Shown: in pieces, positions 23,874-42,179 of the stretch
Layout: each line of letters starts with the position of its first letter
Numbering within the stretch: position 1 is the first letter of the stretch
Source of the DNA: Spirochaetia bacterium
Lineage (GTDB): Bacteria; Spirochaetota; Spirochaetia; CAKZLE01
Reading direction: 5' to 3'
Assembly (NCBI GenBank): GCA_963677595.1
Contig: OY782041.1
Span: forward strand, 3,968,001 to 4,032,000
DNA: 64,000 nt
Translations under genes and position numbers: made by a program
Notes under the pieces: generated by a model
Seen by the model: the letters and a program-made list of their open reading frames with translations, nothing else
The model's database searches: none
What the model was told of the DNA's origin: nothing

Positions 23874-24587
23874 ATGAGTAAGAAAGAACACACGAAAATA
23901 GAGCTCTCACCATACCAGAAGCAGCTCCATACCTTCGGCAGGACTACCAATGTCATCGCAGTCATCGCCCTCGTGGCAGTACCGCTGGTACTCACCATGG
24001 TATCAGGGGTACCTATCGACATCGGGCTCACGCTCCGCGGCCTCGTTGGTATCGGGTCCCTCATGATGGTCATGGTCATCGTAGAGTTCATGAGCTATGC
24101 ACCGATCCTCGGTGCAGGTGCGACCTACCTGACCTTCATCACCGGTAATACCGGTAACCTGAAGCTCCCGGCAGCGAAGAGCTCGATCCGGCTCGCAGAA
24201 GTCGAGGACGGGTCAGCAGAGGCTGAGATCATCTCGACCATGGCTGTCGCCGTCTCCTCGCTCGTCACCATCGTCATCCTCTTCATCGGTCTCTTCGGGC
24301 TGAGTTTCCTCATCCCTGTCCTGCAGAACCCGACCCTCAAACCAGGTTTCGACAACCTGATGCCGGCCCTCATCGGGGCCATGGGTATCCCGGTACTGAT
24401 CATGAGCCCGAAAGAGGCATCCCTCCCGGTCATCGTGGCGATCATCCTGACGCTCATCATCGGGTACGCGATGTTCATGCAGATGGTCTCCATGGCCCTG
24501 CCGGTCTTCATGCTGCTCTCGATCGGCTGGTCATATGTGCTCCATAGAAGGGATGAGAAGAAGAACGCTGCAGCTGATGCAGAATAG
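23874..24587 (+). CDS. Membrane protein, partner of DUF5058 (probable two-subunit permease)
   Basis: YAPILGxGATYLTFITGNxxNLKLP motif and multiple TM helices. AGGAGG SD. Confidence 0.75.
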   Translation: MSKKEHTKIELSPYQKQLHTFGRTTNVIAVIALVAVPLVLTMVSGVPIDIGLTLRGLVGIGSLMMVMVIVEFMSYAPILGAGATYLTFITGNTGNLKLPAAKSSIRLAEVEDGSAEAEIISTMAVAVSSLVTIVILFIGLFGLSFLIPVLQNPTLKPGFDNLMPALIGAMGIPVLIMSPKEASLPVIVAIILTLIIGYAMFMQMVSMALPVFMLLSIGWSYVLHRRDEKKNAAADAE

Positions 24588-24597
24588 GAAAGGAATC

Positions 24598-26232
24598 ATG
24601 AAAAAGATCTATACGAATGGAACAATCATCACCGTCGATGACGACATGCCCCAGGCTGAGGCAGTCGTCGTCAGTGACGGGAAGATCGTCTTCGTCGGCA
24701 GCAGTGAAGGCGCTGCAGCCTACAAGGATGATACGACAGAACTCATCGACCTGGAGGGCAAGACGATCCTCCCGGGCTTCATCGACGGCCACAGCCACTA
24801 CTTCATGGCTGCCAACACGGCGAACATGGCTTCAGTCGCGGCACCCCCGATCGGGAACGTCCACTGTATACCAGATATCATCGCCATACTCAAAGATGAC
24901 ATCGCCAAGAAGGACTATGGTCCAGAAGACATCGTCATGGGCTGGGGCTACGATGAGTCCCTGCTTGATGAAGGCAGGGTCCCGACCAACAAGGAGCTCG
25001 ATGAGATCTCCGAGGAGCTCTCGATCTATATCGCGCATGCCTCAGGCCATAAGGGCGTTGCCAACAGCGCGTTCCTGAAGCGCTTTGGGATCGACGAGAA
25101 TTCCGTGGACCCAGAGGGCGGCCACATCGGGCGGTACCCGGGGACGATGATCCCCAACGGGACGCTCGAGGAACAGGCCATGATGCCGATCATGATGAAG
25201 ATGTTCGGCAAGCCTAATGAGGCGACCCTCGTTGCCAATCTCAAGGCTGTCGGCGAGCTCTATGCCAGCAACGGTATCACGACCGCACAGGATGGCGGCT
25301 GGCAGGAAGCGGTCATCGGGCTGGCACGGATGGCTGACAAGCAGGGACTGGTCAAGATCGACGTCGTCGGCTACCCCTTCGTGGACAGCCCGGAAGCCTT
25401 CGCCCTCATCGACAAGAACGAGGTCGGTCCCTATGACGGCCACATCAAGGTCGGTGGGGCGAAGCTGATCCTCGACGGGTCCCCACAGGCGAAGACTGCC
25501 TGGCTCTCCAAGCCGTACCATGTGACACCTCCAGGTGAGGACGCCTCCTACCGGGGCTACCCCTTCCATAACCATGATGAGCCGGTCATCGCTATCATCG
25601 AGGAGTGCCTCAAGCGGAATATCCAGCTGCTGACCCATACCAACGGCGACCAGGCATCCGAACAGCTGATCACCTGCTATGAGCAGGCACAGAAGAACAC
25701 CGGGATCACCGGTGACTTCCGTCCGGTCATGATCCATGCACAGACAGTGCGTGACGACCAGCTCGACCGGATGGTCCCGCTGCACATGATCCCGTCGTTC
25801 TTCCAGTGCCATACCTTCTTCTGGGGCGACTGGCACATGGATTCAGTGTTAGGACCTGTACGCGGGGCACACATCAGCCCGGTACGGGCTGCGATAGACC
25901 GGGGCATCACCTACACGCTCCACCAGGACACACCGGTCGTGCCGCCCCAGATGATATTCACACTCTGGACAGCGGTAAACCGTAAGACACGATCCGGAAG
26001 ATCGATCGGGGCTGATCAACGGGTCACTATCATGGAGGCGATCAAGGGTATCACGATCAACGGCGCCTACCAGTATTTCGAAGAGGACTCCAAGGGGAGT
26101 ATCACCACAGGGAAACGGGCTGACATGGTCATCCTCGACAAGAACCCACTCGAAGTCGAGCCTGATGCGATCAAGGATATCCAGATCCTCGAGACCATCA
26201 AGGATGGCCAGACCATCTACACGAAGGCTTAG
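24598..26232 (+). CDS. YtcJ-like (amidohydrolase 3) metallo-amidohydrolase
   Basis: PGFIDGHSH, DGSPQ, HTNGD, HAQ, HQDTPV and GKRADMVIL motifs. Start at MKKIYTNG. Confidence 0.9.
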   Translation: MKKIYTNGTIITVDDDMPQAEAVVVSDGKIVFVGSSEGAAAYKDDTTELIDLEGKTILPGFIDGHSHYFMAANTANMASVAAPPIGNVHCIPDIIAILKDDIAKKDYGPEDIVMGWGYDESLLDEGRVPTNKELDEISEELSIYIAHASGHKGVANSAFLKRFGIDENSVDPEGGHIGRYPGTMIPNGTLEEQAMMPIMMKMFGKPNEATLVANLKAVGELYASNGITTAQDGGWQEAVIGLARMADKQGLVKIDVVGYPFVDSPEAFALIDKNEVGPYDGHIKVGGAKLILDGSPQAKTAWLSKPYHVTPPGEDASYRGYPFHNHDEPVIAIIEECLKRNIQLLTHTNGDQASEQLITCYEQAQKNTGITGDFRPVMIHAQTVRDDQLDRMVPLHMIPSFFQCHTFFWGDWHMDSVLGPVRGAHISPVRAAIDRGITYTLHQDTPVVPPQMIFTLWTAVNRKTRSGRSIGADQRVTIMEAIKGITINGAYQYFEEDSKGSITTGKRADMVILDKNPLEVEPDAIKDIQILETIKDGQTIYTKA

Positions 26233-26286
26233 AGTACCCTCACCTGCCGTATGCAGGAACCGTTCGTGATTGGCGGTAATGTCTCC

Positions 26287-26321
26287 GTAGAGCCCTCTGC
26301 AACTCAGGGGGCTCTACCTTT
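26287..26321 (+). terminator. Stem-loop terminator
   Basis: gtagagccctctg-caact-cagggggctctac followed by cttt. Confidence 0.6.
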
Positions 26322-26405
26322 ATAAAACAGACAAACAGCAGATTCGCTCTGCAGCAGTATATATTCCATGGTATAATGAACAAGCTATGAAGCATAGGAG
26401 GAGTC

Positions 26406-28037
26406 ATGAAGGACACGATCTATATCAACGGGGAAGTGGTCACCGTCAACGATAAGCAGCCGGAGGCAGAGGCGGTAGTCGTCAGGAAGGGGAAGATCGC
26501 CTTCGTCGGCTCGACCAAGGAAGCATTACAATACCGGAAAGGTAGTACCAGGGTGATCGACCTTGCGGGGAAGACCCTGCTCCCGGGATTCATCGACCCG
26601 CACAGCCATTTCCTCATGGCGACGCTCACCTCCGATTTCGTCGTCCTCTCCTCCCCGCCCATCGATACCATCGAGACGATCGATGATATCATCGGTCGGC
26701 TCAAAGACCGGATCACTGAGCGAAAGCTCAAGCCCGGGACGACCCTGGTAGGCTGGGGCTTCGATGACTCGCTGCTCAAGGAGGGTCGTATCCTCACCAA
26801 CCGTGACCTCGACCTGGTCTCGACCGAGCACCCGGTGCTCACCATGCACCAGTCCGGCCATATCGGGGTGGTGAACAGCAGCGCCCTCGAGCTCTTCGGG
26901 ATAACCGCCGACACGCCTGACCCCGAAGGCGGCCATATCGGGCATTGGGAGGACGGCACACCGAACGGACTGCTCGAGGAGGCTGCACTCATGAACCACC
27001 TCATGTCGATCTTCCCGAAACCGTCACTGGGGACGGTCATCAGCTCGTTCAAGAAAGGCACGAAGCTCTATGCCCAGTACGGCATCACCACCGCACAGGA
27101 CGGTGGGACTACGGACCAGATGCTCATGCTCGTGAAGCTCGCACGGATCCTGCGCCTCTTCAAGATAGATGTGGTAGGCTATTACGGTATATCAGAGGAG
27201 GGGTTCAGCAAGCTTGACTGGGTCAAGGAGCAGAACCGGTATAAGGGTGGCTTCAGGCTCGGGGGCGTGAAGTTCCTCCTCGACGGCTCCCCCCAGGCAA
27301 AGACAGCCTGGCTCTCGAAACCCTATTTCAAGCCACCAGAGGGTCAGCCTGCCGATTACTGCGGCTATCCCATGCATGAGGACACCGATTTCGTCGACCG
27401 GGTCTATGAGGAGGCCCTGAAGCGCGACATCCAGATCCTGACCCATACCAATGGGGACCAGGCTTCCGAGCAGCTGATCACCAGCTTCGAGAAGGCGAAG
27501 AAGAAGACCGGCAGCACCGCTGATACCCGCCCGGTCATGATCCATGCCCAGACGGTCCGGGACGACCAGCTCGACCGGATGGCACCGCTGAACATGATCC
27601 CCTCCTTCTTCCACGACCATACCTTCTACTGGGGTGACTGGCATATACACTCGGTCCTCGGTAAGGAGCGTGCCTACCGGATCAGCCCTATCCAGTCCGC
27701 GATCAAGCGGGGCATCACCTACACCCTTCACCAGGACACGCCGGTCGTCCCGCCGAACATGCCGTTCACCCTCTGGACTGCCGTGAACCGCAAGACCCGC
27801 AGCGGGGAAGTCATAGGAGCTGACCAGCGTGCTTCGAGGATCGAGGCACTCCGGGGCATCACGCTCAACGGTGCCTACCAGTACTTCGAGGAGGACTCGA
27901 AGGGGAGCATCGAGGTCGGCAAGCGGGCGGACCTCGTGATCATGGACGGCAACCCGATGACCGTCGATGCTGATGCGATCAAGGACCTGAAAGTCCTCGA
28001 GACGATCAAGGACGGCAAGACCATCTACCGGAGATAA
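26406..28037 (+). CDS. YtcJ-like amidohydrolase (paralog of the upstream gene)
   Basis: Same motifs; long identical peptides shared with 24598..26232. Confidence 0.9.
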   Translation: MKDTIYINGEVVTVNDKQPEAEAVVVRKGKIAFVGSTKEALQYRKGSTRVIDLAGKTLLPGFIDPHSHFLMATLTSDFVVLSSPPIDTIETIDDIIGRLKDRITERKLKPGTTLVGWGFDDSLLKEGRILTNRDLDLVSTEHPVLTMHQSGHIGVVNSSALELFGITADTPDPEGGHIGHWEDGTPNGLLEEAALMNHLMSIFPKPSLGTVISSFKKGTKLYAQYGITTAQDGGTTDQMLMLVKLARILRLFKIDVVGYYGISEEGFSKLDWVKEQNRYKGGFRLGGVKFLLDGSPQAKTAWLSKPYFKPPEGQPADYCGYPMHEDTDFVDRVYEEALKRDIQILTHTNGDQASEQLITSFEKAKKKTGSTADTRPVMIHAQTVRDDQLDRMAPLNMIPSFFHDHTFYWGDWHIHSVLGKERAYRISPIQSAIKRGITYTLHQDTPVVPPNMPFTLWTAVNRKTRSGEVIGADQRASRIEALRGITLNGAYQYFEEDSKGSIEVGKRADLVIMDGNPMTVDADAIKDLKVLETIKDGKTIYRR

Positions 28038-30645: not shown

Positions 30646-30674
30646 TTGACAAACACCCTGTTCCATGGTACATT
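30646..30674 (+). promoter_or_regulatory. Sigma70 promoter upstream of the riboswitch
   Basis: TTGACA-17 bp-TACATT with an extended -10 TG. Confidence 0.7.
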
Positions 30675-30789: not shown

Positions 30790-31224
30790 ATGAAGAATCA
30801 CCGAAAGACCATGGTAGTGCTGATCTGTATCGCCCTGCTGTGCAGTATGCCCCTCTTCGCAGGAGGCAAGCCCCTGCAGATCTCTGCATCAGACCCTGCA
30901 GACTGCGGATCAGGCGTTGCCCTGAATGGCGTCATATCCCTGACATTCTCGAACAATGTCGTGAACTTCTCCGTGAGTGAGTCGAACAAGGCCTGCATCA
31001 CGCTGCAGACCACCTATGGGGAACCGGTACCGATAGAGATCCTCATGGCTGATGACCAGGTCGAGCCCGAGAAGAAGCGTGATGTCACCGTCAAGCCCCT
31101 GGAGAACCTGAAGGCATTCACCTCCTATGAGCTGGTCATCTCTGGTGCGTTCCAGGCAAAGAACGGCTCAGCTCTCGAGACTGACCAGGTCATCTACTTC
31201 ACGACCGGGTCCAAGACCCAGTAA
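30790..31224 (+). CDS. Exported Ig-like (Big_5/SbsA-type) domain protein
   Basis: Signal peptide, SDPAD..V.LN..ISLTFSNNV, VKP..NL...TSYELVIS and terminal YFTT motifs. ATG directly follows the riboswitch. Confidence 0.8.
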   Translation: MKNHRKTMVVLICIALLCSMPLFAGGKPLQISASDPADCGSGVALNGVISLTFSNNVVNFSVSESNKACITLQTTYGEPVPIEILMADDQVEPEKKRDVTVKPLENLKAFTSYELVISGAFQAKNGSALETDQVIYFTTGSKTQ

Positions 31225-31226
31225 CC

Positions 31227-32252
31227 ATGAAAGCCAGTCCCCGCGTCAGGGCAGTCGCGCTGCCGGTCATCTTCATCAGTCCCCTGCTCTGTGTGCTTGC
31301 GGCACTCTTCTGGGGGCGGTATCCTCTTTCCCCAGCTGAGGTCCTGGCTGTCCTCATGCGGCACCTGCCTTTCGTAGACTCGTCGGGCCTCAAGGAGACG
31401 ACCATCGCCGTGGTCGAGATCATACGATTTCCCCGGGCGATCTTCGCGGTCCTTGTCGGCGGGTCCCTCGCGGTCTCAGGGGCTGCGTTCCAGGGCCTCT
31501 TCCGGAACCCACTCGTCTCTTCAGGCATGCTCGGGGTAAGTTCCGGGGCAGGCTTCGGGGCAGCACTGGCCATCCTGCTGTTCAACCAGGGGTACCTGGT
31601 CTATGTCTTCGCCTTCGTCTTCGGGTTCGGGGCTGTAGGCCTTGCCTACATGATCGGCCGCATCTACCATACCACGACCTCGGTCACCCTCGTGCTCGGC
31701 GGGGTGGTCATAGGGTCCATCTTTTCCGCCCTCACCTCCTTCGCGAAGTTCGTCGCTGACCCCTATAACCAGCTGCCGACCATCGTGTTCTGGCTCATGG
31801 GATCCCTGGCATCCGCACAGCGCATGCAGATCCTCATCGCCGCGATTCCCATGCTGGTCGGCACCATCGGGCTGATGCTCTTCCGCTGGAGACTGAACAT
31901 CCTCTCCATGGGGGAGCGTGAGAGCCAGGCCATGGGCATCAACCTCCATGCGAACCAGCTGTTGATCGTCTTCTTCGCCACCTTGGCTACCGCAGGGGCG
32001 GTCAGCCTTGCAGGGGTGATCGGATGGGTCGGACTGATCATCCCCCATATGGGGCGCATGATCGTCGGAAGCGACAACCGCATCCTCATTCCCGTGAGCT
32101 TCTGCCTCGGGGCCTCCTTCCTCATCCTCGTCGACAGCCTCGCACGGACCCTGGTAGGCAGCGAGATCCCGCTCGGCGTCCTTACCGCCCTCGTCGGCGG
32201 CCCCTTCTTCATCTACCTGCTCAAGGAGACCAAGGCAAGGGGGTGGCAATGA
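31227..32252 (+). CDS. FecCD/BtuC-type ABC transporter permease
   Basis: IRFPR, QGLFRNPLVS, GVSSGA, FWLMGSL, GWVGLIIPH and EIPLG motifs. Confidence 0.92.
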   Translation: MKASPRVRAVALPVIFISPLLCVLAALFWGRYPLSPAEVLAVLMRHLPFVDSSGLKETTIAVVEIIRFPRAIFAVLVGGSLAVSGAAFQGLFRNPLVSSGMLGVSSGAGFGAALAILLFNQGYLVYVFAFVFGFGAVGLAYMIGRIYHTTTSVTLVLGGVVIGSIFSALTSFAKFVADPYNQLPTIVFWLMGSLASAQRMQILIAAIPMLVGTIGLMLFRWRLNILSMGERESQAMGINLHANQLLIVFFATLATAGAVSLAGVIGWVGLIIPHMGRMIVGSDNRILIPVSFCLGASFLILVDSLARTLVGSEIPLGVLTALVGGPFFIYLLKETKARGWQ

Positions 32253-33067
32253 GCCCGCTGCTCGCGATGGAGAACGGTTCCTTCTCCTATACTCCTCAGA
32301 AGAGGATCTACTCACAGCTCAGCTTCTCGGTGGAACCGGGAGAGGTGCTCTGTATCCTCGGCCCGAACGGCTGCGGGAAGACCACCCTGCTTGACAACCT
32401 CCTCGGGTATTACCCGCTGGATGAGGGGAGCATCCTGATCGACGGCGTAGATTCCTCCGCGATGAGTGCCCCGCAGCGAGCCCGGAAGATCGCCTATGTC
32501 CCCCAGATACACCAGAAGACCTTTCCCTATACCGTCGAGCAGGTGATCCTCATGGGCAGGACACCGCACCTGCCGTTCCATACCGGGCCGGTTCGGTCAG
32601 ACATAGAGAAAGTGAATGAGGTCATCGACCTGCTGAACCTCGAGAGGCTCCGTCACCAGGAGTATACCCGTCTCTCCGGGGGAGAGACCCAGCTGGTGCT
32701 GATCGCCAGGGCCCTCGTACAGGAGAGCCAGGTGCTGGTCATGGACGAGCCGACCAACCACCTCGATTATACCAACGAGCTGATCATCCTTGAGACTATG
32801 AAAGGGTTGATACGGGATCGCGGCCTGTCCATCATCATGGCGACCCATGTCCCGAACCATGCTTTCTTTTTCGAGAACCATGCCATTCCCGTCGTGGTCG
32901 CCCTGATGCAGCAGGACAGGGGATTCCGCTGTTACGGCTCTCCCGAAGCGGTACTGACGCCTGAGAACCTCGGGGAGGTCTATCATGTGGATACCTGCAT
33001 ACTCGAGTATGCGGGTATTAGTACAGAACAGCAGCTGCGGCACATCGTTCCGCTGCGATTGAGGTAA
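32249..33067 (+). CDS. ABC transporter ATP-binding subunit (FecE/BtuD-type)
   Basis: GPNGCGKT, LSGGE and MDEPTNHLD motifs. ATGA overlap with the permease. Confidence 0.92.
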   Translation: MSPLLAMENGSFSYTPQKRIYSQLSFSVEPGEVLCILGPNGCGKTTLLDNLLGYYPLDEGSILIDGVDSSAMSAPQRARKIAYVPQIHQKTFPYTVEQVILMGRTPHLPFHTGPVRSDIEKVNEVIDLLNLERLRHQEYTRLSGGETQLVLIARALVQESQVLVMDEPTNHLDYTNELIILETMKGLIRDRGLSIIMATHVPNHAFFFENHAIPVVVALMQQDRGFRCYGSPEAVLTPENLGEVYHVDTCILEYAGISTEQQLRHIVPLRLR

Positions 33068-33073
33068 CTATCC

Positions 33074-34162
33074 ATGCACAGAACACGAATATTGATCATA
33101 CTAACCGCATTCATTTTCTCCCTTTCCCTGGTATCTGCCCAGGGCCAGGTTGAAGGAAGCCTACTGCCGGTACAGGCCGAACGGACGGTCATCGACTGCT
33201 TCGACCGTACCGTCTCCCTGCCTGAGACCATCGACCGGGTAGCCTGTCTCTATGCCTTCAGCACGCATGTCATGACGATGCTCGGGGAGGATGACAAGAT
33301 CGTTGCCGTGGTGGAGGGCTCCAAACGAGATATGCTGCTTAACGAGGTCTCTCCTTATATCGGGGAGGCAGCGACCCCCTCGGACAGCGGCATAATCAAC
33401 ATCGAGGAGCTCCTTGCCACTGACCCTGACCTCGTATTCCTGAAAGGAGAGACTGCCCTGCTGGCCGAGGAGACCGCCAAGCTCGAGCTCTTCGGCATCC
33501 CCTACGTTGTGATCGACTTCACCACCATAGCCGAGCAGATGCGGGCGATCGAGGTCATTGGGGATGTGATGGGCGAAAGCGATAGAGCTGCAGCGTACCT
33601 CAGGTATTACCAGCGAATCATCGATGAGACGCTTGCACGGACGAGCAGCCTGTCAGAGGATGAGAAACACCGGGTCTACCATTCGGTGAACGAGGCGACC
33701 CGTACCGACGCGGCAGGCACCCTCACCGCGGAGTGGACGCAGATCGCGGGAGCGATCAACGTCTCGGTGGGTTCTGACCTTCGGGTCTATGAGAACAAGT
33801 TCTATGCCTCCATCGAGCAGATCCTGCTCTGGGACCCGGAGATCATCATCTGCAACGAGTACGGCGTGGATGGGTATATCATGAATAACGAGAAGTGGCA
33901 GACGATCCAGGCAGTGAAGGACCAACTGGTCTTCAAGATCCCTACCGGCATCTCACGGTGGGGCCATCCCGGCGGGATGGAGACACCCCTGGCGATCCTT
34001 TGGACGGTGGGGACGCTCTATCCGGAACTCAGTGAGGATATAGACATGTTCGGGATCACCAATGACTATTACAACGATTTCTTCGACTACCAGATCAGCG
34101 ATGAGCTAGTTGAACGCATGCTCTCAGGCGGGAGGATGCGGATGGCCAAGGAGGATATGTGA
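33074..34162 (+). CDS. Helical-backbone (Peripla_BP_2) substrate-binding protein
   Basis: Signal peptide, INIEELLATDPDLV, SIEQILLWDPEII and AVK motifs. Confidence 0.88.
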   Translation: MHRTRILIILTAFIFSLSLVSAQGQVEGSLLPVQAERTVIDCFDRTVSLPETIDRVACLYAFSTHVMTMLGEDDKIVAVVEGSKRDMLLNEVSPYIGEAATPSDSGIINIEELLATDPDLVFLKGETALLAEETAKLELFGIPYVVIDFTTIAEQMRAIEVIGDVMGESDRAAAYLRYYQRIIDETLARTSSLSEDEKHRVYHSVNEATRTDAAGTLTAEWTQIAGAINVSVGSDLRVYENKFYASIEQILLWDPEIIICNEYGVDGYIMNNEKWQTIQAVKDQLVFKIPTGISRWGHPGGMETPLAILWTVGTLYPELSEDIDMFGITNDYYNDFFDYQISDELVERMLSGGRMRMAKEDM

Positions 34163-34163
34163 G

Positions 34164-34901
34164 ATGAGAAGATTCTTACTCTGCATCGATGATACCGACA
34201 ACCTGGGCACTCCCGGCAGCGGCCATATCCTCAATGATATCTGCCTGCACCTCCAGGAGAGGGGATTGGCCCGTGGATCGAGGATCAGCCGGCACCAGCT
34301 CTTCGTGCATCCCGATGTGCCCTATACCAGCCACAACTCCTCTATGTGCACGATCCTCACCGGCATCCATGACGAACAGGCGGTGATCTCCGAGGTCGAG
34401 ACGGAACTTCGCGAACGGGCTGCGGAGGGTTCGGATCCCGGGATCTGCTTCACTGCCTGGGATCAGATCCGCAGTCCTGAGCTGCTCATCGATTACGGGC
34501 GCAGGGCAAAGCGAGAGGTCCTCTCCAAGGGAATAGCCTATGAGACGGCGAAGGAATGCGGCCTCTACCTGAACGAACTCGGCGGCACGGGGGACGGCGT
34601 CATCGGGGCTGTCGCCGGCATCGGCCTGCGCCTCAGCGGGACTGACGGAAGGTTCAGGGGGAAGCTCCCCTTCTCCGCTGCCGGACAGCCCTGCAGAGCT
34701 GGCGACTTCGTATGCCTCGATGAGGTCGATGAACTGCGGTGCGCGGTTACAGGAAAACTCCTGGACGAGAGCGACCTGGTCACCTGGCTTCCCGAGATCA
34801 AGACCGTCTTATATGGCCATAAGTCAGTGCTCCCGGTCCTGCCGGATGGAGATCACTGGCGGGTCATGGACAGGGTGGAACTGAAGGCACGGTACAACTA
34901 G
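34164..34901 (+). CDS. TiaS/DUF1743-like catalytic-domain protein lacking tRNA-binding domains
   Basis: CIDDTD, RHQLFVHPDVPYTSHNSSMC, EGSDPG and GGTGDGVIGAVAGIG motifs resemble the TiaS N-terminal ATP-binding domain. Confidence 0.7.
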   Translation: MRRFLLCIDDTDNLGTPGSGHILNDICLHLQERGLARGSRISRHQLFVHPDVPYTSHNSSMCTILTGIHDEQAVISEVETELRERAAEGSDPGICFTAWDQIRSPELLIDYGRRAKREVLSKGIAYETAKECGLYLNELGGTGDGVIGAVAGIGLRLSGTDGRFRGKLPFSAAGQPCRAGDFVCLDEVDELRCAVTGKLLDESDLVTWLPEIKTVLYGHKSVLPVLPDGDHWRVMDRVELKARYN

Positions 34902-35305
34902 AGAAGCTCCCGCAGACCAAGCAGCGTCTCATCCTTCATAGCCTCCAGGAACTCACGCAACCCCTTGAATGCAGACTCCCGGTCCTTGCCCTCCACGGCG
35001 AGGAAGAGAATCGAGTCGTTCCTGTCGATCGTACCGATCGCGTGGACCGCATAGAGGCTGTTCAGGTCATACCGTTCAGCTATCTCCACGGCTTTCGAGG
35101 TGAGAATCGCTTCCGCATCGGGCTGCACCTTGTACAGCTCGATCCTGCTGTAGTCTGCGACCTGCTTCCCGGGGTACTTCGCCTTCCCGTGGTGGACGAG
35201 GATGGTCCCGGTCGAATCAGCCGGTGATTCGTGGAATGCCCTATACAGCTCGACATGGTCGAACCCCTCTGCAAGCTGAAATGATACCTTCTGCCTTGTT
35301 TCCAT
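34898..35305 (-). CDS. Divergent MoaE-like (molybdopterin synthase large subunit-like) protein
   Basis: Aligns by eye to MoaE (G.ILVHHG.AK, VH.IG.I...DSILFLAV...DRESAF...FLE.MK). Confidence 0.65.
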   Translation of the reverse strand: METRQKVSFQLAEGFDHVELYRAFHESPADSTGTILVHHGKAKYPGKQVADYSRIELYKVQPDAEAILTSKAVEIAERYDLNSLYAVHAIGTIDRNDSILFLAVEGKDRESAFKGLREFLEAMKDETLLGLRELL

Positions 35306-37953: not shown

Positions 37954-39111
37954 ATGATGATCAAAAGAGCTCTATCAGCAGAGCTGACTGCAGCAAGCAG
38001 GTTCTTCCCAGTCGTCACCCTGACAGGACCGAGGCAATCCGGGAAGACCACGTTGGTGCAGGAGTGTTTCCCTGAACACACCTACTGCAATCTTGAGAGT
38101 CCTGAGATCCGAATGCTTGCTGCTTCTGATCCCAGGACGTTCTTTCATACATATACTCCACCCATGATCATCGATGAGGTCCAAAGGGTTCCTGAACTGT
38201 TGTCCTGGATCCAGGTCTTCTCAGATGAGCATCAGCGTAAAGGACAGTATATCCTGACAAGAAGCAGCCAGCCCCAGCTGAACGAGGCAGCCTCCCAGTC
38301 CCTTGCAGGACGGACAGCAGTGTATCAGCTGCTGCCGCTGTCCCTCGGGGAACTGCAGGCCCATTACCATGAAACACCAATGAAAGAAGAAGTCATGGTG
38401 AACGGGTTCCTGCCCAGACTTTACCATGACAACATCCCGGCAGGCATGGTCTATTCCAGCTATTTCAGGACATATATCGAACGTGATGTCCGTTTGCTGA
38501 GTACTATAAAGAACCTCTCCCAATTTGAGCAATTCATCAAACTACTTGCCGGTAGGATCGGGCAGCTGGTGAATCTTTCTTCTTTATCCAATGACATAGG
38601 AGTATCTTCAACCACCCTTGCTTCCTGGCTATCGGTCCTTGAGGCATCGTTCATCATCTACCGGCTGCCACCGTATCACACGAACAGGAGAAAACGGCTG
38701 ACACGCTCCCCCAAGCTGTATTTCACCGAAACCGGGCTGGCAGCTTGGCTTCTCGGTATTGAGACCCCATCCCAATGCTTGAGGGATCCCCTGCTGGGCA
38801 GCCTGTTCGAGAATATGGTCGTGATGGATGCCGTGAAGCAGCAATTGAGCAGGGGGAAGGTACCCCAGCTCTCGTTCTACCGCGATGCAAAAGGCCATGA
38901 AGTAGACCTCATACTTGAGAAGCAGCGTGTACCATACCCCATTGAGATCAAGTCGGCCATGACCTGGCACGACCATTTCGCAAAAGGGATCACCTGGTTC
39001 CAGTCTGCTGAGCCTGCATCAGGCAGGGGATCTGTGATCTATTCAGGCGATCTGGAGTTCGACAGGGAATCGTATAGTATCAGGAACTTCAATTCCGAGC
39101 TCAGTGTATAG
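37954..39111 (+). CDS. AAA_14/DUF4143 ATPase
   Basis: GPRQSGKT, IIDEVQ, SLAGR, TYIERDV, PKLYF, FENMV and EVDL..IEIKS motifs. Confidence 0.9.
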   Translation: MMIKRALSAELTAASRFFPVVTLTGPRQSGKTTLVQECFPEHTYCNLESPEIRMLAASDPRTFFHTYTPPMIIDEVQRVPELLSWIQVFSDEHQRKGQYILTRSSQPQLNEAASQSLAGRTAVYQLLPLSLGELQAHYHETPMKEEVMVNGFLPRLYHDNIPAGMVYSSYFRTYIERDVRLLSTIKNLSQFEQFIKLLAGRIGQLVNLSSLSNDIGVSSTTLASWLSVLEASFIIYRLPPYHTNRRKRLTRSPKLYFTETGLAAWLLGIETPSQCLRDPLLGSLFENMVVMDAVKQQLSRGKVPQLSFYRDAKGHEVDLILEKQRVPYPIEIKSAMTWHDHFAKGITWFQSAEPASGRGSVIYSGDLEFDRESYSIRNFNSELSV

Positions 39112-39124
39112 GTACTATGTGACT

Positions 39125-39367
39125 ATGAAGATCTTCTTATCAATTCCGGATAACGTATGCAAAGAAGCGGAAAGGACTGCCAGGCAGCTTGGTCTTACGA
39201 GAGACCAGCTGTACATCAGGGCTGTCAAAGAGTTCGTTGCCCATCATCAGCGAGACACCATAACAGAGATGCTCGATAGCATCTATGCAGATAGGCCTCA
39301 AGAAGATCCTGTATCAGATTCGGGATTAGAGGCCATGAGAGAGGCAGCAGAACATGATTCTTGGTAG
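39125..39367 (+). CDS. ChpI/MazE-like ribbon-helix-helix antitoxin (orphan)
   Basis: MKIFLSIPD..AE..A..LG..R.QL...AVKEF....ITEMLDSIY and C-terminal DSW, as recalled for Leptospira ChpI. Confidence 0.75.
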   Translation: MKIFLSIPDNVCKEAERTARQLGLTRDQLYIRAVKEFVAHHQRDTITEMLDSIYADRPQEDPVSDSGLEAMREAAEHDSW

Positions 39368-39390
39368 AATCTGGTAAGCGAACCCAGTAG
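39354..39390 (+). pseudogene. Relic of a ChpK/MazF-type toxin 5' end
   Basis: Overlapping ATG gives MILGRIW*ANPV, resembling MIRGEIWW of ChpK/MazF. Premature TAA; the rest is absent. Confidence 0.55.
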
Positions 39391-39410
39391 TTAGAGCAAT
39401 ACATTCATGG

Positions 39411-40628
39411 TTAAAACAGACTGGTATCAAGCAGGAATCGACGAAGGGATACATGCCGGACTCCAGAGATGGTATCAGTGAAGTCAGGGTCCATCGTTAC
39501 CACGAATTTGGGATAGGAATCCCTGATCCGTAGAAGTGGGGAGAACTCCCTTTCAATGGTGGTCTCGTTCTCCAGCTTATATGCGACCTGGATATAGACT
39601 AGCTGATCTCTTCGCTCTGCTACGAAATCCACTTCCAACTTTCCTAGCTTTCCGATGTATACAGCGTATCCTCGTCTCACCAGTTCGAGGTAGACGATAT
39701 TCTCCAGGACACCGGATATATGATGGTCCCGATAGCCGAACAGGGCATGCTGCATACCTTGATCTGCCAGGAAATACTTCTCCTGCGTCTTGAGGATCTC
39801 TTTCCCCTGTATATCATACCGCTGTACCTTGCGAAGGATATAAGAACTGACAAGGGCATCCAGGTAGGTATAGATAGTACTGATATCAACGGACCGGTAT
39901 TGACTTTTGAAATAATCAGCGATCTTCTTCGCAGAGATCGTATGACCGATAGATTCTATGACGAATCTCATGATCCTGTTCAGGAGATCAATGTCCCGGA
40001 TCTTATAACGATGCACCACGTCCCGAAGGACGATAGAATCATAGGTATCACGCAGGATGGTATATACCACCTCTTCTTCATACTCACCCACATGGATCGC
40101 GGGAAACCCGCCTCGCCTGATAAACTTCCAAAGCAGCTCATCAGAAACCTCCTGCTCCGCTGTGCTGCGTTGGAAGTCGAGCATCTCCCGAAATGAGAGC
40201 ACCTGAATCTCTATCCGAATAAAGCGACCCGTAAGGAGGGTCGAGAGTTCAGAGGATAGGAGATGGGAGTTCGACCCACTGATGAAGATATTGACCTGAA
40301 AATCTACCATCAGGGAATTGACAGCTTCTTCCCATGAATCGACGATCTGTATCTCATCAAAGAACAGGTAGACCATCTCAGTGCGTGAGGCAAGCATGTT
40401 CGCAACATATGTATACAATGAATGTGCATCACGAAGACTGTAGTATTTCATACTCTCGAAATTGATCGATACGATCTGGTCTTCCCGAATCCCATTATCG
40501 CGCAGGTACTGCTGGGTAAGAAGCAGTAATGTGGATTTCCCACATCTACGAACTCCTGTGATCACTTTGATGAAAGGAGTTTTGATACATTGTCTGATCT
40601 TTTCCGTGTATAAAGGCCTCTCAATCAT
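39411..40628 (-). CDS. AAA_14/DUF4143 ATPase
   Basis: GVRRCGKS, FFDEIQ, SGSNS, LLTGR, GGFP, LENIVYLEL and EVDFVA..YIQVAY motifs. Confidence 0.9.
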   Translation of the reverse strand: MIERPLYTEKIRQCIKTPFIKVITGVRRCGKSTLLLLTQQYLRDNGIREDQIVSINFESMKYYSLRDAHSLYTYVANMLASRTEMVYLFFDEIQIVDSWEEAVNSLMVDFQVNIFISGSNSHLLSSELSTLLTGRFIRIEIQVLSFREMLDFQRSTAEQEVSDELLWKFIRRGGFPAIHVGEYEEEVVYTILRDTYDSIVLRDVVHRYKIRDIDLLNRIMRFVIESIGHTISAKKIADYFKSQYRSVDISTIYTYLDALVSSYILRKVQRYDIQGKEILKTQEKYFLADQGMQHALFGYRDHHISGVLENIVYLELVRRGYAVYIGKLGKLEVDFVAERRDQLVYIQVAYKLENETTIEREFSPLLRIRDSYPKFVVTMDPDFTDTISGVRHVSLRRFLLDTSLF

Positions 40629-40840
40629 ATATCGAACCTCTTTATATGATTATACTCCCAAAAACTTGAATACTATAGTACTTTGTATGGTTATACCCAT
40701 ACAAAATATGATTTTCAGTTCTATGCATCCAGTTCCAGACAGGTTATGCAACACCATACACCCCATCCACAACCTCTATGAGGAATGCCCCTTCAGGCTG
40801 GAGATGACAAATCCTGCAGACCGTAGACTCCCTTGCCTGC

Positions 40841-42127
40841 TCAGTCCCTGAGGCAGCCTATGGGGACGACCTTGACCCCATCAGGTCGGGTATAGGCGAT
40901 CTCTCCACCGGTTATGATGATCAGGGCTCCAGGTTCCCTGATAGCAGTTCCTCCCTTCTGCTGATTCACCTTACGTATGAGCCTTTCTACTTTCAGGAGA
41001 TGGGAAGCTCCTTCCTCGATCCCCCTGCTTCCCAGCTTGAATTCGATCAGGGCATATCTCCCATCGTCCAGGTGCAGGACAGCGTCAACCTCCAGGTTGG
41101 TCCGATCATGGTAATATGACAGTCTGCCTCCTGAAGAAGCTGCATATGCAGAGAGATCTCTCATACAGAGATTCTCAAAGATGAAACCGAAGGTCTCGAA
41201 GTCCTGCAGCAGCGCCTCCGGACTCAATCGAAGTGAGGCAGTCATGATGGACGGGTCTATGAACATCTTCTTTGTCGTACTGCGCATCGCTGTCTTTGAG
41301 CGAATCGCAGGATTCCAGGCGGGAACATCAGATATCACGAACAGGCGGTTCAAGGCACTCACATATTCATAGAAAGCAGATTGTGAAAGCCTGTTATTGG
41401 CATTGATATCTTCTAGAATCGTCTTATTCGAAGCGAGTGTACCGATATTCCTTGCATATGATCTCAATACGCTCTGGACCTTTCCGGGATCCCTTCTGGT
41501 ATGGTCAATCGAGGATATATCACTCTCAATGATCGAATCAACATAAGCCTTTGATACCAGCAGCTTCGCTTTATCACTGGTCTTACTGAGACTTGCAGGC
41601 CAGCCTCCCCTGCATGCAGCAAAGACCAGGTTCTCGATACTGAGTCCTGACAAGCTGCCATCTATATCATACTGCTCATCATACATGAGTTCATGTAAGG
41701 AAATAGTACCATTCGATTCCCCAGACTCGAACAGACTCATCGGGAGCATCTGAAGCCTTGCGATCCTACCTGTCCCTGAATGCATGATCTTAGATTCATC
41801 TACAGTCGTTGAACCAGTAAGGATAAACAACCCTTCCTGTCCAGCTGAATCGATGAAACTCCTCACTGCATCCCATAAAACTGGTGCCATCTGCCATTCA
41901 TCTATCAATCTCGGATATGACCCTTTCAAGAGGAGCGATGGTTTTATCTCAGCCGTGGCCAGATACCTGCTGGAAGTGTCCGGATCCTGCAGCTTCACCA
42001 TACTCTTTGCCTTCTGGCTTGCACTTGTGGTCTTGCCGCACCACTTTGGTCCTGTCAGCAAGACTGCTCCGAAAGCTTCAAGATAATCATCCAATATCGT
42101 GTCGATAATCCGCGGCAGATAGTTCAT
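40841..42127 (-). CDS. AAA/DUF4143 ATPase
   Basis: GPKWCGKT, LIDEWQ, ILTGS, HSGTGR, RGGWP, FENL and EVDAV..LIEFKLG motifs. Confidence 0.9.
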   Translation of the reverse strand: MNYLPRIIDTILDDYLEAFGAVLLTGPKWCGKTTSASQKAKSMVKLQDPDTSSRYLATAEIKPSLLLKGSYPRLIDEWQMAPVLWDAVRSFIDSAGQEGLFILTGSTTVDESKIMHSGTGRIARLQMLPMSLFESGESNGTISLHELMYDEQYDIDGSLSGLSIENLVFAACRGGWPASLSKTSDKAKLLVSKAYVDSIIESDISSIDHTRRDPGKVQSVLRSYARNIGTLASNKTILEDINANNRLSQSAFYEYVSALNRLFVISDVPAWNPAIRSKTAMRSTTKKMFIDPSIMTASLRLSPEALLQDFETFGFIFENLCMRDLSAYAASSGGRLSYYHDRTNLEVDAVLHLDDGRYALIEFKLGSRGIEEGASHLLKVERLIRKVNQQKGGTAIREPGALIIITGGEIAYTRPDGVKVVPIGCLRD

Positions 42128-42179
42128 CAGCATCCTCCCCTGTATGTAGTATACATCAGAATGCTATTCCATCAAACAG

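Follow-up and report, generated by a model that had tools for sequence, protein, structure and literature searches.

We describe a stand-alone bacterial relative of the kinase domain (TCKD) of TiaS, the archaeal tRNA(Ile2) 2-agmatinylcytidine synthetase (PDB 3amt, 3amu, 3au7, 4rvz, 5xob, 3u02; NF040849; Pfam PF22641 TiaS_TCKD), encoded last in an importer operon led by a Moco/Tuco riboswitch. We tentatively propose, with somewhat less than even confidence, that it is a salvage kinase rephosphorylating a pterin form of the tungsten cofactor after its import. The operon lies in a window of 64,000 nucleotides (the whole stretch of DNA analysed) from a Spirochaetia bacterium, and its features are collected in Table 1.

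Table 1. Features of the importer operon and its immediate surroundings, in window coordinates
Feature	Coordinates	Strand	Evidence or remarks
Putative promoter, sigma-70-like match TTGACA-17-TACATT	30646..30674	+	10/12 matches, just before the riboswitch
Moco/Tuco riboswitch RF01055 without stem P3	30682..30801	+	Rfam
Ig-like (Big_5) protein, N-terminal hydrophobic leader	30793..31224	+	Pfam E 4e-11
FecCD-type (type II) ABC permease	31227..32252	+	Pfam FecCD E 4e-83
ABC ATPase	32249..33067	+	Pfam ABC_tran E 3e-31
Class III substrate-binding protein	33074..34162	+	Pfam Peripla_BP_2
TiaS-kinase-domain (TCKD) homologue	34164..34901	+	245 aa: TCKD residues 1-157 and a C-terminal domain of ~88 residues
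moaE (molybdopterin synthase large subunit)	34898..35305	-	Pfam MoaE E 1.5e-15

Translation shows the TCKD gene to be a real open frame. IDDTD, PYTSHNSSMC, SDPG and GxGVIGAxAGIG, the motifs listed by an earlier, sequence-only reading, are all confirmed in it, the first three at residues 8-12, 53-62 and 90-93; residues 141-154 read GTGDGVIGAVAGIG. The ATG at 34164 is preceded by a ribosome site, AAGGAGGA, and lies 1 nt past the stop of the binding-protein gene; a signal peptide is not evident in the sequence of the product. The host genome has a single copy. Taken alone, the 245-aa query hit no Pfam family and, by phmmer against the PDB, nothing at E<=0.001 (weak matches to Xaa-Pro dipeptidase were dismissed as chance), while all clusters given by the ESM Atlas were either unnamed or had TiaS_TCKD on a minority of their members. 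The family itself is large, with 1135 relatives at E<=0.001 out of 1942 candidates and 413 representatives at E<=1e-30 in a library clustered at 50%; the median length among 281 stored members is 248 aa.

A profile of 119 family sequences and an AlphaFold2 model of the 245-aa protein (pLDDT 94) were compared with the PDB. The profile matched 3u02, 3au7, 4rvz and 3amt (E 5e-9 to 7e-8) over residues 1-157 only, Foldseek with the model gave 3amu (E 2.9e-9), and an unbiased VIA search of 48,161 chains found TiaS at Z 20.6 (rmsd 2.2 A, 155 aligned residues), with the next unrelated fold at Z 7.3. The structural likeness to TiaS expected by the sequence-only reading is present by all three routes and, as judged from the profile and the predicted model, homology of residues 1-157 to the TiaS TCKD is confirmed. 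HPPK, a pterin pyrophosphokinase, appeared at Z 6.5-7.5, inside the noise range of the tool, and was not counted as evidence. Among NCBIfam models, both TiaS (NF040849, 19.5 bits against a cut-off of 600) and methanogenesis marker 11 (TIGR03280, 48.4 bits against 255.8, E 6.6e-13) score below threshold, and the marker 11 match spans only model positions 132-282 of 292.

The last ~88 residues (160-245) form a separate, beta-rich part that is confidently modelled within the whole protein; folded alone from its single sequence it reaches pLDDT 38. A 66-sequence profile of this domain found nothing in the PDB (best E 0.98), and in Pfam no family was hit by more than one of the 66 members. Since the fold searches with the whole model were filled by the N-terminal domain, the C-terminal fold is not to be called new. 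The protein contains no CxxC and hence no zinc ribbon, as had been noted from sequence, and it is likely that these last residues do not form an OB fold either.

Within the kinase domain, D9, D10, T11 and D12 are invariant in the 119-sequence alignment, DDTD occurs in 274/281 family proteins together with a conserved pocket, and position 19, the counterpart of TiaS Thr18 in the alignment, is either T (98/119) or S (21/119). In TiaS we take Thr18 to be the phospho-acceptor and DDTD to bind Mg-ATP; the enzyme releases AMP and passes the phosphate on, and its FLD/OB region holds agmatine. Release of PPi by TiaS has been described (PMC13397572, in part), as has a dual RNA and protein specificity of its kinase domain (PMC11938285, in part). 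The substrate side is altered in the bacterial family. TRGN of TiaS is found in 0/281 proteins, and TS[HQ]N stands in 269/281 (TSHN in the query); GRG becomes G[DQG]G (GDG in the query), with GRG.[IV]GA in 3/281. An invariant RHQL motif is new relative to TiaS, and so are the invariant His44 and His57 and the near-invariant Cys62, which could equally bind metal. Further invariant residues, D161, G162, R163, G166 and K213, lie in the C-terminal part. By profile alignment two TiaS arginines, presumably phosphate or RNA contacts, are replaced in the family, and therefore the chemistry may differ. With DDTD and the hydroxyl kept and the substrate-side motifs altered, the nucleotide chemistry has likely been retained and the substrate changed.

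The family thus shares with TiaS the kinase-domain fold of ~155 residues, DDTD, the Thr18-equivalent hydroxyl, R of the PRL motif, PY, T and N of TRGN, PG, and G-x-G-hh-GA. It differs in length (245 aa against 420-440), with likeness ending at residue 157, in having TSHN for TRGN, G[DQG]G for GRG, RHQL and its own C-terminal domain, in lacking the zinc ribbon, and in its context of an importer, a riboswitch and a bacterial host with TilS. Methanogenesis marker protein 11 also has a TCKD-like domain and is the better HMM match of the two; unlike it, our protein is without the N-terminal ~130 model positions, has the C-terminal domain instead, and comes from a host that is not a methanogen.

The operon runs in the order riboswitch, Ig-like protein, FecCD permease, ABC ATPase, class III binding protein and TCKD gene; moaE converges on it as a separate transcript and is the only genomic copy found by tblastn with the query used. 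At 72.1 bits (E 4e-15) the riboswitch exceeds its gathering score of 36, and its alignment shows stem P3 deleted. The first gene has its ribosome site within this RNA, which also overlaps the start codon of that gene. By minimum free energy the leader folded no better than its shuffles (z -1.1), so the call rests on Rfam. The region has four sigma-70-like sites where shuffles give 2.2 +/- 1.5, and it is only the position of the putative promoter in Table 1 that argues for it. This riboswitch was absent from the sequence-only reading.

Moco RNAs without P3 have been tied to tungsten-cofactor metabolism (Regulski et al. 2008, PMC2408646, in part), and both features of this Tuco subtype are found here: P3 is absent, and the host has tungsten metabolism (a TupA match and nine AOR/WOR-family enzymes). 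In the parts covered, the supplement of the same study lists FecCD/FepC/TroA_e genes downstream of Moco RNAs in Desulfitobacterium, Moorella and Syntrophomonas and gives those transporters no function; a term search of it found COG1571 and TonB 0 times (PMC2408646). Import of B12 was also considered and rejected, as Rfam found no cobalamin riboswitch in the 30 + 15 sources scanned.

Beside the nine AOR/WOR-family enzymes the host genome has one DMSOR-family match, matches to moaA, moaC, moaE, moeA and mogA, and a TilS above its cut-off; ModA was not matched with the query used. Three P3-less-type Moco riboswitch sites were found, of which that in the window is one and a second leads tupABC. 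The third (L043:2772-7795; G000:C1:271771 onward) leads an ABC importer made up of an SBP_bac_8 protein, a Moco-fold lipoprotein whose only Cys is that of the lipobox, and a double permease; for this lipoprotein the ESM Atlas gave a lead-level Oxidored_molyb match (0.83, on 22% of members). This importer is a candidate second importer of cofactor or pterin. A moeA-moaA-moaC-MOSC-mogA cluster lies at G000:C1:1782884-1786237; the only MoeA in it is short (~320 aa matched) despite the nine AOR/WOR genes, and moaE is far from the cluster, next to the importer operon.

Carriers of the family have AOR/WOR genes without exception (45/45 genomes tested, among them all five Bacillus/Neobacillus carriers), against baselines of 72/301 in the phylum of the window and 26/251 in the order of Neobacillus. 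Of the genomes sampled in the phylum, 8/72 AOR-positive and 0/229 AOR-negative ones carry the family. This spread is patchy (8/301), and seven of the eight carriers belong to one family; among 250 other genomes in the order of Neobacillus there was no further carrier. Most carriers are anaerobes, where AOR is common. MoaC was found in 41/45 carriers, for which reason cofactor auxotrophy was rejected as the driver, and a TupA-like protein in 39/45.

For neighbourhoods we collected 38 genome loci, 80 metagenome loci (the best 80 of at least 554) and 7 from relatives in the phylum (four of them extended). Six extras from the host's own genome, the duplicate L115 and four short loci that have longer versions in the set were left out of the count, which came to n=125 including the window; 71 of these loci are at least 8 kb long. 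They cannot be taken as independent of one another: 11/38 are from Acetobacterium and the seven other phylum carriers are one family. An importer stands beside the gene at 82/125 loci (61/71 of the long ones); it is of the ABC type of our operon at 49/125 and an ECF importer at 25/125, with both together at 0/125. TonB systems occur at 24/125 loci, 13 of them with ECF and 3 with the operon's ABC type, and in L134 the TonB receptor is in the same gene run. Big_5 proteins are near the gene at 40/125, Mo/W genes at 41/125 and TupA/ModA/TupB/MOT1 genes at 18/125. Moco-fold (Oxidored_molyb-like) proteins stand beside it at 11/125, with Pfam E values of 1e-6 in L002 and 1e-9 in L132 and weak or absent matches in the others. 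A protein of the amino-acid-kinase fold, which we take to be MoSto-like, is found near the gene at 6/125 loci (L006, L084, L099, L107, L125, L126), usually with a mini-protein of ~80 aa. No marker at all was seen at 22/125 loci, and at 5/71 of the long ones.

Riboswitches were found at 35/125 loci and 27/71 long loci; the chance expectation per window of this size is ~1% in the host genome and higher in riboswitch-rich genomes. They were detected with a covariance model built from nine Rfam-found riboswitches, whose training set included the window and five loci, giving matches in 9/46 and 26/80 sources and none in the four extended loci. An independent Rfam scan recovered RF01055 in 15/15 hit loci, and P3 was absent in all 9 same-strand riboswitch matches among 10 Rfam alignments. 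Among the 34 related loci with a riboswitch, it lies upstream on the same strand in 26 and within 300 nt of the gene in 8. In 8/34 it is only downstream, and in the Acetobacterium loci L019, L028 and L033 it lies between gene and importer; control of the gene by the switch is therefore not universal. A link of the homologues to Mo/W genes, which the sequence-only reading had presumed, is borne out by the riboswitches, the Mo/W genes and the AOR/WOR co-occurrence; it is a link to tungsten more than to molybdenum.

A third operon type was seen at L002:2076-8741, L132:9291-16988 and L135:1711-8948, whose upstream genes encode a TonB receptor and Moco-fold, CcsA-like, ResB-like membrane and tetrapyrrole-methylase-like proteins; in L132 a metallophosphoesterase gene is added upstream of the TCKD gene. 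Cys-less Moco-fold proteins are known pterin binders (PruR; PMC13259868, in part).

The importer is a type II ABC system with a class III binding protein. Its nearest solved relatives are MolB/HI1471 for the permease (2nq2, E 3e-65) and MolA/HI1472 for the binding protein (3psa, E 9e-29), parts of the type II molybdate/tungstate importer MolBC-A (HI1470-72) of Haemophilus influenzae (PMC4245157, in part). This kinship is the strongest point for plain oxyanion uptake. The MolA ligand residues are K221 and R264 (bioRxiv 10.64898/2026.10.15.759412, in part). By pairwise sequence alignment K221 maps to T216 (S/T in 28/32 orthologues), R264 to a gap beside E262 (E/D) and Y301 to H298. R85, H203, E207 and R295 of our protein are invariant in 32 orthologues, and its pocket thus appears to differ from that of MolA. 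Close orthologues of the binding protein (E<1e-140) occur in 2/301 genomes, both adjoining a TCKD gene. MolBC-A and our operon have the importer class and the Mo/W link in common; ours differs in the two ligand residues and in what seems to be an invariant pocket of its own, and also in the Ig-like partner, the cytoplasmic enzyme, the riboswitch and, in some diderms, a TonB receptor. The typical cargo of ECF and TonB systems is a vitamin or a chelate and not a free oxyanion.

The Ig-like protein has a DDQ loop (D87, D88, Q89) invariant in 25/25 sequences. Its profile had no PDB match at E<=0.1, and a search with a longer form gave one unhelpful match. Complex prediction with the binding protein scored 0.68 against 0.00 for the best of 3 controls; the mark is reached by 116/157 solved complexes and 2/215 mismatched pairs, counts that are only a rough guide for runs with our own alignments. 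Contact agreement among runs was at least 88% and partner pLDDT at least 91, and in the predicted dock the DDQ loop sits at the conserved G82/R85/E207/R210 surface of the binding protein. The modelling supports binding of the Ig-like protein to the binding protein; in L096 the two are a single ORF.

It is common for a phosphorylated cofactor to enter the cell stripped of its phosphate and to regain it inside. On this pattern we suggest the following scheme. (i) When cofactor is low, the riboswitch would free the ribosome site, as extrapolated from Regulski 2008. (ii) The exported Ig-like protein, whose predicted docking site is the cleft of the binding protein, may hand over or cap the ligand, most probably dephospho-molybdopterin or a tungstopterin fragment. 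(iii) The type II ABC importer, elsewhere ECF with a TonB receptor, would bring this ligand in. (iv) DDTD would bind Mg-ATP, AMP would be released and, by homology to TiaS, phosphate would pass via Ser/Thr19 to the ligand. (v) The restored pterin phosphate could then go through MogA/MoeA to the nine AOR/WOR-family enzymes. AOR joins its two pterins via their phosphates and Mg (PMC10221389, in part).

What speaks for this salvage kinase is the predicted TCKD fold with kept catalytic and changed substrate-side motifs, the riboswitches and importers found with the gene, the AOR/WOR genes of all carriers tested, the predicted docking of the Ig-like protein, the metallophosphoesterase of L132, and the TupA-like protein already present in 39/45 carriers. 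Moco-fold proteins and ECF importers in sister loci suggest an organic ligand. Against it stand the plain molybdate or tungstate carried by MolA/MolB, the carriers' own moa/moe/mog genes (MoaC in 41/45; they are not cofactor auxotrophs), and the frequency of metal-handling neighbours (TupA/ModA/TupB/MOT1 18/125, MoSto-like 6/125). Loci with the riboswitch only downstream or with no marker at all, the dependence among loci, the commonness of AOR in anaerobes, the possible metal ligands His44, His57 and Cys62, and the two replaced arginines weigh against it as well. Part of this feeds a serious rival, which we consider rather unlikely: that the importer takes up tungstate or chelator-bound tungsten and the enzyme spends ATP on freeing the metal, activating it or passing it to MoeA or a MoSto-like store. 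Kinship to MolA/MolB, the metal-handling genes, retained de novo pterin synthesis, conserved His44, His57 and Cys62, and the control of host tupABC by a P3-less riboswitch all suit it, as do TonB receptors, which also carry metal chelates. It has to contend with the loss of MolA K221 and R264 (S/T216; a gap next to E/D262), with the TupA already in most carriers, and with the Moco-fold proteins and ECF importers that point to an organic ligand. The sequence-only reading is thus supported in part: a small-molecule kinase acting on an imported ligand such as dephospho-molybdopterin, which it had suggested, is our preferred reading as well, though a tentative one.

An improbable alternative is a ligase or repair enzyme with the two-step logic of TiaS, in which a carbonyl or hydroxyl of a damaged pterin would be phosphorylated and a nucleophile would displace the phosphate, together with an oxidoreductase. 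The invariant D161, G162, R163, G166 and K213 could form its second site, and a Cys-tailed subfamily (42/281), often fused to an FAD/[2Fe-2S] oxidoreductase, and the DAO and Fer2_BFD domains carried by 14/18 longer family matches, a pair that in L037 adjoins the TCKD gene, fit it as well. The agmatine-holding FLD/OB region has no detected counterpart, however, the window protein has neither tail nor oxidoreductase, and read-through may account for some of the long fusions (e.g. P0266, P0267). A regulator or cofactor carrier (autokinase or ATP-binding chaperone) in place of a metabolic enzyme is less credible again: it could draw on the kinase specificity of TiaS for both protein and RNA (PMC11938285, in part) and on the paralogue without DDTD or TSHN kept in L081 and broken in L124, but DDTD and its pocket are conserved in nearly the whole family, and the gene travels with unrelated importer types, not with one target protein. 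That TiaS is the only clear structural match would favour a bacterial TiaS modifying tRNA-Ile C34, alone or with a partner, and this we regard as highly improbable given the NF040849 score far below its cut-off, the missing zinc ribbon and TRGN, and the patchy spread in a tungsten-uptake context. TilS is present over its cut-off and the tRNA-handling part is missing, which supports the view of the sequence-only reading that the TCKD protein is not a tRNA enzyme.

The closest parallels to the proposed salvage kinase and its operon are vitamin salvage operons, such as cobamide BtuB/BtuFCD or ECF systems with CobU and thiamine importers with ThiK or thiamine pyrophosphokinase. These follow the same logic of a cofactor-sensing riboswitch, interchangeable ABC, ECF and TonB importers, a surface capture protein and a cytoplasmic ATP-using enzyme; our operon differs in its riboswitch class, in the TiaS-like fold of the enzyme and in its ligand, here a putative one. 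We conclude that the system would work like a vitamin-salvage operon and that it falls outside TiaS, marker 11 and, judged by its pocket, MolBC-A. As a wider and still doubtful proposal, it may be that anaerobes scavenge the W/Mo pterin cofactor or its dephosphorylated pterin from their surroundings as a shared vitamin. Proteins at the cell surface would capture it, ABC or ECF/TonB importers would take it in interchangeably, and a salvage kinase of TiaS fold would act on it, with the Tuco riboswitch controlling the whole set.

In the usual account, bacteria take up no more than molybdate or tungstate and make the pterin on their own. Among open-licence papers we found no description of the TCKD family or of bacterial Moco/Tuco salvage, and a term search of main-text passages of PMC3766115, PMC12584684, PMC13328260, PMC7694415 and PMC6313347 returned nothing on the family. 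If the proposal is correct, the tungsten cofactor would be a cross-fed nutrient like B12 among acetogens, syntrophs, sulfate and iron reducers and gut anaerobes, bacteria would have a Moco/Tuco uptake-and-salvage pathway, and the TiaS kinase fold would gain a second, small-molecule job. It would also offer a clue to methanogenesis marker 11, in which the domain recurs, and could help cofactor loading of the AOR/WOR enzymes used in gas fermentation. Under the metal-mobilising rival, too, this would be an undescribed tungsten-acquisition route. Three small soluble proteins are enough to put the question to a direct test.

We finally note some peculiar members and neighbours. (i) Tandem family copies occur at L081:7998-10386, L099:7998-9628 and L124:115-2160; between two intact copies L081 has a degenerate paralogue without DDTD or TSHN and L124 a broken one. 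A hetero-oligomer is possible at these three loci. (ii) An internally deleted gene copy at L036:236-577, near Fic and HipA genes, joins profile positions 1-68 to 199-246. (iii) The Cys-tailed subfamily (P0160, P0212, P0268-P0281; L037:7998-12104) has a tail of ~50 aa that bears the motif C...CxxCxxR[WL]...C, and it often adjoins, or is fused with, a DAO/BFD, Pyr_redox and DUF1667 oxidoreductase set; one member is fused to HdrA. (iv) Elsewhere in the window, two tandem paralogous Amidohydro_3 genes (24535-28037) are preceded by an aminotransferase-like gene and two membrane proteins, and the ORF list has three similar ATPase-like frames of 385, 405 and 430 aa in a row at 37954-42133.
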